Part shown: one piece after another, positions 3,001 to 6,000 of the stretch
Layout: each line of letters opens with the position of its first letter
Position numbering within the stretch: position 1 is the stretch's first letter
Assembly: GCA_037200965.1 (NCBI GenBank)
Contig: JBBCGK010000001.1
Location: 96,001 to 160,000, forward strand
Source of the DNA: a bacterium
Lineage (GTDB): Bacteria; Patescibacteriota; Minisyncoccia; Phycocordibacterales; Phycocordibacteraceae
Length of the DNA stretch: 64,000 bases
Reading direction: 5' to 3'
Made by a program: the position numbers

Positions 3001-6000
3001 GATGGCGGGCATGTACGAGATCGATTCGCTGTATCCGGGCTACGGCCACACGCTCGGCAACAGCCTCCGCCGCATCATCCTTTCCTCGCTTCCGGGCGCG
3101 GCCGTCACCTCGGTCAAGATCGAGGGCGTGCCGCACGAGTTCGCCACGATGGAAGGCGTGCGCGAGTCGGTCATGGAAGTGCTCCTCAACCTCAAGCGCG
3201 TGCATTTCACGCTCCACACCGACGAGCCGCAGACCATCTCGCTTTCCGTAAAGGGGCCAAAGCACGTCACGGCGGCCGATTTCAAGCTCCCGAGCCAGGT
3301 GGAGATCGCGAATCCGGAGCAGCACATCGCCGACGTTTCGGGCAAGATCGCGTTCGAACTCGAAGCGTCGATCGAGCGCGGCCTCGGCTATGTCCCGCGC
3401 GAAGTCCTTACCAAAGAGAAAGTCGACATCGGCGCGATCGCGCTTGATGCGACCTTTACGCCTATCCGCCGCGTGAACTACGAAGTCGAGAACATGCGCG
3501 TCGGCGACCGCACCGATTTCAATCGCCTTCGCATCCTCATCGAGACCAACGGCACTATCGCTCCCCGCGAGGCGCTTGAGCGCTCGATCGAGATCATGAT
3601 CCACCAGCTCAAGTCGGTTATCGGCTTCCAGGAGGAAGCGGCACCGAGCCCCGAGGTGAAGCTCGAGGCGGAGTCTTCTTCGGAAGGAACGGCGGACTCG
3701 ACAAAAATGAAAGTCGAGGATCTCGGCCTTTCGGCCCGCGTCACCTCCGCCCTTACGGATGCGGGCATCCGTTCCGCCGCGGGCCTCGCGCGCAAAAGCG
3801 CGTCCGCCCTTGAGGAGCTCGACGGCATCGGCGAGAAGGCTATCGCGGAAATAGAAAGTGCGCTAAACTCCCTCGGTCTCGCGCTTAAGAAGGACTGATA
3901 CGGCGGGTACACGGAAAGCCATGCGACACAACAACAAAGGACGTGCGTTCAACCGACCAGACAACCAGCGCGCCGCGCTCGTCCGGTCTCTTGCGCGCGC
4001 CCTTATCCTCGAGGAACGCATCTCGACGACCGAGGCCAAGGCGAAGGAACTCCGTCCCTTCATCGAGAAGCTCGTGACGCGCTCGAAAGCTGATACGGTC
4101 GCGAACCGCCGCCTTATCTCTTCGAGGCTCGGGAGCCCCGAGGCCGTCAAGAAGCTCTTCACGACGCTCGCGCCGCGCTATGCGGAAACGAACGGCGGCT
4201 ATACCCGCATCGTGAAGCGCCCGGCGACCGCAAACGGCCGCATGACCGCCTATATAGCTTTCGTCTAACATGGAACCGAAACAGTACACCATCGATGCCA
4301 GGAATCAGTCGCTCGGACGCGTCGCAAGCGAAGCCGCTTCGATGCTCATGGGCAAGAAGTCCGCGCACTTCGTCAAAAACCAGATCCTTCCGGTCACCGT
4401 GACCATCACGAACGCTTCGAAACTCTCGCTTCCCGAGCGCCGCGTCGCCGGAAAGGAGTACACCCATTACACCGGCTATCCGGGCGGCCTCAAGGTCCAG
4501 GGCCTTGCCGAGATGATCGAGAAGAAGGGAGTGGGCGAGGTGCTCCGGAAGGCGATCGACGGCATGATCCCGCGCAACAAACTGCGCAAGGGCCGCATGA
4601 AGCTGCTTACCATCATCGACTAACTTTATTTATGTCTGACTCTACCAAATACAGCGCGGCAGTCGGACGCAGGAAGACTGCGACCGCTTCGGTTCGGATC
4701 ACGAAAGCCGATACGGCGAGCGTGACCGTGAACGGCAAGAGCGCGAAAGACTATTTCAAGACCATGGAACGCACCAAAGTCGCCGAGGAAGCGCTTTCGG
4801 CAAAGGATCTCGCCGGTACCTATGCGGTTTCCGCGCGCGTCTCCGGAGGCGGCGTCGCCGCCCAGGCGGAAGCCGTCCGCCACGCGATTTCCCGCGCGAT
4901 CCTCAAGGAAGAGGCGGGCATGCGCGGTACGCTTAAGACCGCCGGATACCTGCGCCGCGACCCCCGCGCTGTCGAGCGCAAGAAGCCGGGACTTCGGAAG
5001 GCCCGCAAGTCTCCGCAGTGGAGCAAGCGTTAGTTCGGGAGTGTTTCCCCGGAAGCCTTTATCCCCGTCTTATCTTGTTTCGCTACGATGAACTGCAGGT
5101 TCAGAATTCTCGAACGCGCGCTGAGCACCGAACATATCAAGCAGACAATCCGGGAGCCGGATATAAAGCGCGGTGCCGGAGAGGGAACGGTTAAGGTTTG
5201 GAAAAGACTTGATGCGGGCGTAAGGATCGTAGTAGTATACTCGCAAGGCAGAATCCGGAACCGCAAGAACGATTATTTCGTAATTACGGCATACTACTTA
5301 TGAAAATCACCTACGACAAACTGGCGGACGCGGCATATATGACGTTGCGGAAAGGGAAAGTGGCGAAGACCGTCGAAATGAGCGGAGACGTTATCATCGA
5401 TCTCGACAAGCGCGGGCATATTCTCGGCATAGAGATGCTCGCCGCTTCAAATCAATTCGCAAAGGGAGATCTTGCGAGGAATACGATCCCCGGCATTCCG
5501 GTTGAAATAATTTCCCGCTCGCCCGTTACCGTATAAATACCATGAACTGCCCGAAATGCGGAAAGCCGATGGAAGCGGATGCCGGACGCTCCAGGGAAAC
5601 GACCAATTCGGAAACCGGAACGAGATACGACCATATCCAATACGTGTGCCGGGAAGACGACGTGTGGGTCACTACTGAAATCCCTAAATAACTAAGGACA
5701 TGCGGGACGAACGAGATGAATTCGAAATAGACGCGGAAGCCGCGGAGAACCGCCGTGCGCAGGGGGAAGACACGGACGCCGCAGATGAAACGGGCGCTGC
5801 CGGGAAAGTCGCAAAGTTGAAGAGGGAGATTGAGGCTCTTAAAAAGGAGAAGCAGGAATACCTCGACGGCTGGCAGCGCTCCAAGGCCGACTACGCGAAC
5901 GCGCAGAAGCGCTTCGACGAGGAGCGGACGGAAGCCGCCGCACGGGGAGCCGCGAGAGCCGCAGAGGCGCTTCTCCCCGCGCTCGACAGCCTCGAGCGGG

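Follow-up and report, generated by a model that had tools for sequence, protein, structure and literature searches.

Why do two very small genes stand between the end of a ribosomal-protein block and the start of a chaperone block in a patescibacterial genome? The locus lies on a 64,000-nt stretch of contig JBBCGK010000001.1 (assembly GCA_037200965.1, positions 96,001 to 160,000 of the forward strand), which we call the window and number from its first letter. An earlier note on this DNA had described a cassette between rpsI and grpE, made of two open reading frames (ORFs) of 71 and 78 aa with a 4-nt overlap; the first, ORF1, was said to resemble DUF4258 and the second, ORF2, to match DUF2283. 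Both ORFs were found as claimed, and the bases that they share are ATGA at 5300-5303. From the family assignments, the pairing of the two genes and the state of the toxin gene in related loci, we think it likely that ORF1 and ORF2 form a toxin-antitoxin (TA)-type pair that depends on read-through from the ribosomal operon for its transcription and whose toxin is probably attenuated in this genome. The locus is a partly eroded copy of a widespread, catalogued pair of this type; it is real but fairly ordinary, and the results will not surprise TA specialists.

Identity and pairing of the two genes

The DUF2283 assignment of ORF2 is direct. The protein scores 57.4 bits against the Pfam model (PF10049; E 1.7e-15), where the gathering cut-off is 23 bits, and it covers the whole model (positions 1-49 of 49). 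We collected 64 homologues with a mean column identity of 70%, and these carry the JGI name 'uncharacterized protein YuzE'. Like other proteins of DUF2283 / COG5428, such as YuzE of Bacillus subtilis, ORF2 matches the full 49-position model, but its subfamily differs from them in having an extra conserved C-terminal tail of ~28 residues (GIPxEIIS...). The AlphaFold2 model of ORF2 (predicted local distance difference test score (pLDDT) of 84.6) shows an all-beta N-terminal domain, with the C-terminal tail modeled less confidently. No DNA-binding domain was detectable in ORF2; a sequence search of the PDB with the protein returned no match and a profile search with the family alignment did no better. 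The 'antitoxin' label of DUF2283 / COG5428 comes from annotation only (PMC12521503). The use of the name DUF2283 for FseA, an activator of an integrative and conjugative element (PMC4755241), was given no weight, as the domain of this activator is a different DUF.

ORF1 required intermediate sequences. Against DUF4258 (PF14076; gathering cut-off 25 bits), ORF1 alone reaches 15.9 bits (E 0.016), which is below the cut-off, although its alignment takes in model positions 6-70 of 71. A word-indexed search found five homologues besides ORF1 itself, and a profile built from ORF1 and these five close homologues reached 224 representatives in 1.84 billion proteins. All of the 119 aligned relatives match DUF4258 at E<=0.01, and 91 of them do so at E<=3e-5, a value that corresponds to about the DUF4258 gathering score by extrapolation from bits. 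The relatives are therefore members of the family, while the window protein, the only one of the 120 aligned sequences to miss E<=0.01, is itself below the Pfam cut-off. Through these intermediates ORF1 is assigned as DUF4258-like, so that the resemblance noticed earlier holds although it is sub-threshold for the protein alone. In the AlphaFold model made on the 120-sequence alignment (pLDDT 83), two helices at the N-terminus precede four strands. We recognize the helices as the pre-alpha and alpha helices, and the strands as the four-stranded antiparallel sheet, of the BECR topology, and the predicted fold is accordingly BECR. A 2026 preprint assigns DUF4258 to the colicin-like BECR ribonucleases and describes this topology for that branch. 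Some of the ORF1 relatives also weakly match PBECR nucleases, BrnT and colicin E5. A PDB sequence search with ORF1 gave spurious repeat-protein matches only, a profile search with its family alignment was no better, and PADLOC, NCBIfam and PHROGs held nothing useful for ORF1, ORF2 or the third called ORF of the insert, ORF3.

ORF1 is distinct from the better-known toxins with related folds. Its sequence identity to BrnT, the toxin of the BrnT-BrnA type II TA system (Brucella abortus; PDB 3u97), is ~9%, and its partner is the all-beta DUF2283 protein, not a BrnA-type protein. The tRNase domains of colicin D, colicin E5 and CdiA-CT (colicin-like BECR, Ntox49), which come with immunity proteins, form the C-terminal ends of large proteins that are secreted or delivered. 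In contrast, ORF1 and nearly all of its relatives are stand-alone proteins of 64-86 aa, and ORF1 is not the C-terminal domain of a large secreted protein as a polymorphic or contact-dependent inhibition (CDI) toxin of the Ntox49 type would be. The toxin here, of 71-76 aa, contains no delivery domain and would therefore act inside the producing cell.

The pairing itself is evidence for a module. Every ORF1 homologue with a readable context (five homologue contexts) is directly followed by a DUF2283 gene of 77-78 aa. When metagenomes were scanned, 52 loci were obtained, three of them uninformative as the contig ends before the downstream gene; in all 49 informative loci an ORF2-like gene lies on the same strand at -4 to +11 nt from the toxin stop codon. 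The junction of ORF1 and ORF2 thus recurs in homologous loci as the same overlap or as a gap of up to 11 nt. The arrangement extends to plasmids: on pATS2 of Athalassotoga (Thermotogota), a DUF4258 gene overlaps a DUF2283 gene by 4 nt between copies of IS256 and near a tyrosine recombinase gene, and a 7.8-kb Thermus plasmid carries an annotated DUF4258 gene followed by a DUF2283 gene. The recurrence of the pairing, which the earlier note had asserted, is borne out by these loci. The comparison points cleanly to DUF2283 as an obligate partner, encoded downstream, in one DUF4258 clade (49/49), and the plasmids of two other phyla agree with this. We consider ORF1 and ORF2 to be real genes and not chance ORFs, as judged by sequence conservation, because ORF2 combines its Pfam score with 64 homologues and because the ORF1 homologues (50-67% identity) are always followed by an ORF2 homologue. 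They are small, adjacent and co-directional, they overlap by ATGA and they are conserved as a pair. On the Acidiphilium multivorum plasmid pACMV6 (L145 1194-1686), a DUF2283 gene directly follows an annotated RelE/ParE-family toxin gene, so the partners of DUF2283 may not be limited to a single BECR toxin family.

Published surveys describe other partners. Gerdes 2025 (PMC11980606) places DUF4258 in the RelE/ParE superfamily with partners such as HicB or MqsA and tabulates the order as antitoxin then toxin, and a Synechocystis survey reports DUF4258 paired with HicB. Here, instead, the toxin gene comes first and its partner is DUF2283. In E. coli, the partners of DUF4258 were reported to lie strictly downstream (PMC10790755), as the partner gene does here. 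We found no literature that names both DUF4258 and DUF2283.

These features suggest how the module would work. The toxin would be a stand-alone BECR RNase, and its intact form would cut tRNA or mRNA. ORF2, the cognate DUF2283 (YuzE-like) protein, would neutralize it by direct binding, and the ATGA overlap may couple the translation of ORF2 to that of ORF1. If the antitoxin of an intact module were lost, the toxin would stop translation. We found no sigma-70-like site in the spacer between rpsI and ORF1, and read-through from the ribosomal operon is probably the only source of transcription of the window pair, because no terminator-like site was found on the + strand between rpsI and grpE. An RNA component, as in type I or type III systems, was also looked for, and there was no Rfam match in 4000-7000.

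Erosion of the toxin gene and retention of its partner

The N-terminal end of ORF1 differs from that of its family. Close homologues are 75-76 aa long and begin MRLKFTxHCQxRILER, whereas the window ORF1 begins MNCRFRILER and is short of ~6 N-terminal residues. The His of the N-terminal motif is present in 118 of the 120 family sequences and is an Asn in the window ORF1. Other conserved positions are Arg10 (118 of 120), Thr67 (112) and Tyr69 (113), of which the last two are on the last strand. According to the 2026 preprint, the active site of colicin-like BECR enzymes involves both the pre-alpha helix and the last strand and uses a His as its acid-base residue, and the conserved residues of the family coincide with these places. 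By this analogy, the His, the Arg and the Thr-x-Tyr of the last strand are a candidate toxin active site. The set is incomplete in the window ORF1, which keeps the Arg, Thr and Tyr.

The DNA upstream has changed as well. In a DNA alignment with five homologous loci, the other loci contain an extended -10-like element, TGnTAnAAT, followed by ATG-CGA-CTC-AAG-TTT, while the window spacer shows no match to this element or to the original start codon. The TAnAAT part is placed 6-11 nt upstream of the ATG in many homologous loci; a -10-like element only a few bases before the ATG implies a leaderless transcript. Because the promoter, the original start codon, ~6 N-terminal residues and the near-invariant His have been lost, the window toxin is probably attenuated or inactive.

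Related loci show the same process at different stages. Of the cassettes at the rpsI site, those of L012, L093 and L094 have a full-length toxin; the toxin of L099/L100 has no start codon and misses its first 13 residues, and in L132 only the last 24 codons are left. Decay is also seen elsewhere, with a nonsense codon at position 10 in L098 and truncated toxins in L134 and L139. ORF2 is intact in all of these loci, and it is strongly constrained, with nonsynonymous divergence (dN) of 0.01-0.2 and saturated synonymous divergence (dS). The loci of this one chromosomal site form a natural series in which the toxin erodes and the antitoxin is retained, and they illustrate the decay of an addiction module in the very small genomes of Patescibacteria.

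Several observations weigh against an attenuated RNase toxin. The rest of ORF1 is uninterrupted, with no frameshift, and it keeps Arg6, Glu9, Arg10, Pro24, Asp25, Lys39, Tyr51, Thr67 and Tyr69. Relative to that of ORF2, the dN of ORF1 does not exceed the values in other lineages; relaxed selection, which would show as accelerated change in the window toxin, was considered and is unsupported, since the residual is ~1 standard deviation, the dN ratios are ordinary and dS is saturated. Some BECR RNases, e.g. colicin E5 and RelE, act without a catalytic His, and the window toxin may still be active. The RNase assignment has its own difficulties: a Foldseek search of the ORF1 model against the PDB gave no significant match (best TM-score 0.62, to BrnT), no experimental test of any DUF4258 or DUF2283 member was found in the literature, and the target of DUF4258 is listed as unknown, with no experimental reference, in Gerdes 2025 (PMC11980606).

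Taken at face value, the uninterrupted frame, the retention of most family-conserved residues and the ordinary divergence relative to ORF2 would suit a fully functional module, in which the 71-aa ORF1 is an active toxin made from a new ATG and ORF2 is needed to restrain it. A cassette and gene arrangement identical at the protein level were found in three independent assemblies, GCA_037975565.1 among them, which also speaks for function. The missing Shine-Dalgarno sequence upstream of ORF1 is uninformative, because none of the 13 neighboring genes examined (window 1096-6335), ribosomal-protein genes included, has a Shine-Dalgarno-like sequence; translation initiation in this organism, as far as these upstream regions indicate, seems not to rely on one. 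On the other hand, the Asn replaces a His found in 118 of 120 sequences at the place on the pre-alpha helix that holds the acid-base residue in colicin-like BECR enzymes, the -10 element and the start codon of the family are gone, and sister lineages at the same site are eroded further at the same end of the gene. We therefore regard a fully functional module as unlikely and favor the attenuated toxin.

The conservation of ORF2 allows a further idea, which we raise tentatively and hold to be rather improbable: the host may have recruited the DUF2283 gene in this Paceibacterota subclade, where it would have persisted beyond its toxin. ORF2 would then be kept by strong purifying selection as part of the rpsI-to-grpE transcription unit, even as the toxin gene decays. 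If this is true, the retained DUF2283 protein could provide a standing immunity against incoming DUF4258-type toxins of mobile elements or phages, i.e., anti-addiction; in an alternative role, it could be a new regulator tied to translation or chaperone expression.

Distribution of the cassette and the rpsI-grpE site

The window genome is not alone in having the cassette at this site. The nearest RpsI relatives (59-67% identity) are metagenome-assembled Paceibacterota/Parcubacteria, Kaiserbacteria included. Among 80 related genomes, 67 have grpE within 4 kb downstream of rpsI, with a gap of 34-3605 nt (median 381) that is <=92 nt in 13 genomes and <=220 nt in 24, and the neighborhood is conserved as the earlier note had supposed. 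Most of the 80 relatives are without the cassette. It is found directly after rpsI in at least five other lineages, namely L012 (Paceibacterota) and the metagenome loci L093, L094/L095, L099/L100 and L132, in which grpE-dnaK follows further downstream except on the short contig of L093. In L137, an ORF2 homologue is upstream of grpE at a contig edge. The cassette is thus not peculiar to the window genome but occupies the same site in several related lineages.

The gaps between rpsI and grpE in the relatives hold varied, unrelated genes. A hotspot for TA genes was considered for this gap and rejected, as translations read by eye gave assorted membrane, secreted, cupin-like and metabolic genes. 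Reading the translations in this way, we noticed a ~190-aa secreted cysteine-rich protein in the gap of L013, L017, L018, L019 and L028, accompanied by a cupin-like protein in L017, L018 and L019. Judged from this gene content, the rpsI-grpE boundary of many Paceibacterota accepts unrelated insertions. A subclade has probably long carried the cassette there.

Other copies are placed elsewhere. The cassette is part of a ~3.7-kb insertion between rplB and rpsS (L004 3394-6642, JGI Ga0212124_10006004; also L005-L007), and it occurs downstream of secDF and next to a LUD-domain gene and purC. The insertion between rplB and rpsS holds the toxin-DUF2283 pair and four genes without a Pfam match (350, 111, 245 and 81 aa), and it interrupts the S10 ribosomal-protein operon, which is normally unbroken. 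Close homologues are therefore present in at least four chromosomal contexts, and the distant pairs are on small plasmids and between IS256 copies. In the ORF2 tree, the rpsI-site loci all fall in one subclade, intermixed with cassettes of other contexts. The tree and the range of contexts indicate that the module is both inherited at the rpsI site and mobile.

This distribution bears on a different reading, in which the pair is not a TA system but a small RNA-processing enzyme and a partner that serve translation or ribosome biogenesis. Such a role would explain the presence in ribosomal-protein operons, after rpsI in at least six lineages and between rplB and rpsS in another, as well as the strong purifying selection on ORF2. 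We find it very improbable, because the pair is patchy, being absent from most of the 80 relatives, and turns up in unrelated contexts and on small plasmids beside insertion sequence elements, and because the enzyme gene has been repeatedly truncated or knocked out while the partner was kept. Repeated loss of the toxin with the partner retained fits an addiction module, not a housekeeping enzyme.

Layout of the locus and neighboring features

The features of the locus are given in Table 1. The cassette was correctly placed at 5088-5536 by the earlier note, but it is not the whole insert between rpsI and grpE, which spans 5034-5699 and contains a third called ORF before grpE. Upstream is a block of ribosomal-protein genes and rpoA that ends with rplM (4270-4623) and rpsI, and grpE is followed by dnaK (6335-8221) and dnaJ.

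Table 1 Features of the insert between rpsI and grpE and of its borders (window positions)
Feature	Position	Strand	Basis and remarks
rpsI (ribosomal protein S9)	4632..5033	+	Pfam Ribosomal_S9, E 1.2e-36; last gene of the ribosomal-protein block, upstream flank
Spacer with degenerate traces of the former promoter and 5' end of the toxin gene	5034..5087	+	DNA alignment with five homologous loci
13-nt direct repeat, left copy, TAC[G/C]ATGAACTGC	5084..5096	+	Covers the ORF1 start
ORF1, DUF4258-type toxin gene, predicted BECR fold	5088..5303	+	71 aa, ATG start; N-terminally shortened; Asn for the conserved His
ATGA start/stop overlap of ORF1 and ORF2	5300..5303	+	Coordinates of both ORFs
ORF2, DUF2283 (YuzE-like), predicted antitoxin	5300..5536	+	78 aa, ATG start; intact, highly conserved; Pfam DUF2283
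13-nt direct repeat, right copy	5538..5550	+	Covers the ORF3 start, 2 nt past the ORF2 stop
ORF3, orphan 49-aa ORF	5542..5691	+	Zinc-ribbon-like pattern CPKC...H...C; outside the conserved module
grpE	5700..6257	+	Pfam GrpE, E 9.3e-34; downstream flank, first gene of the grpE-dnaK-dnaJ block

ORF3 is called as a gene by NCBI, and its matches to Pfam are weak, sub-threshold zinc-ribbon matches only. It is not counted in the system because it is absent from L012 and from all other cassette loci examined; ORF3 is an orphan outside the conserved module. A three-gene system, in which the zinc-ribbon-like ORF3 would act as a second antitoxin or a regulator much as the zinc-ribbon antitoxin MqsA, sometimes fused to DUF4258, might suggest, has next to no likelihood: ORF3 does begin 5 nt after ORF2 on the same strand, with MNCPKC where MqsA begins MKCPVC, and there are 17 DUF4258-MqsA fusions in Gerdes 2025 (PMC11980606), but its similarity to MqsA covers only six residues (E 0.08), its only match among 5.8 billion proteins is itself, and no other cassette locus has it, not even that of L012 at the same site, so that an MqsA-like partner is unsupported. 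The ORF2-grpE spacer is 163 nt in both the window and L012. Homology of the two spacers was considered and rejected, as their alignment is at about chance level.

The two copies of the 13-nt direct repeat are identical at 12 of 13 positions, have a spacing of 454 and bracket the ORF1-ORF2 module exactly. ORF1 and ORF3, whose starts are covered by the copies, both begin Met-Asn-Cys. One 13-nt repeat within 1 kb is about what is expected by chance, but its placement at both module boundaries is not expected. The repeat could be a trace of the recombination that created the new start of ORF1, or it could be chance.

Two further properties of the locus were considered. The stop codon of rpsI, TAG, is in the reading frame of ORF1, 18 codons upstream; therefore, stop-codon read-through would fuse S9 to ORF1. 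This in-frame stop is probably without meaning. The GC content of the cassette is 50.8%, compared with 62-64% in the flanks and a window mean of 55.3%. Recent horizontal transfer of the cassette was considered on this ground and rejected, as 50.8% is at the 22nd percentile of the window and no outlier. The GC content of the window is uneven, with 62-64% in the ribosomal and chaperone genes and down to 30% in at least one 600-nt stretch.

Downstream, between dnaK and dnaJ, a 78-aa ORF without a Pfam match is called as a gene at 8331-8567 (+). The longest ORF of dnaJ, 8549-9754 (+), starts ~40 codons before the conserved MAKNYYE start and overlaps this 78-aa ORF.

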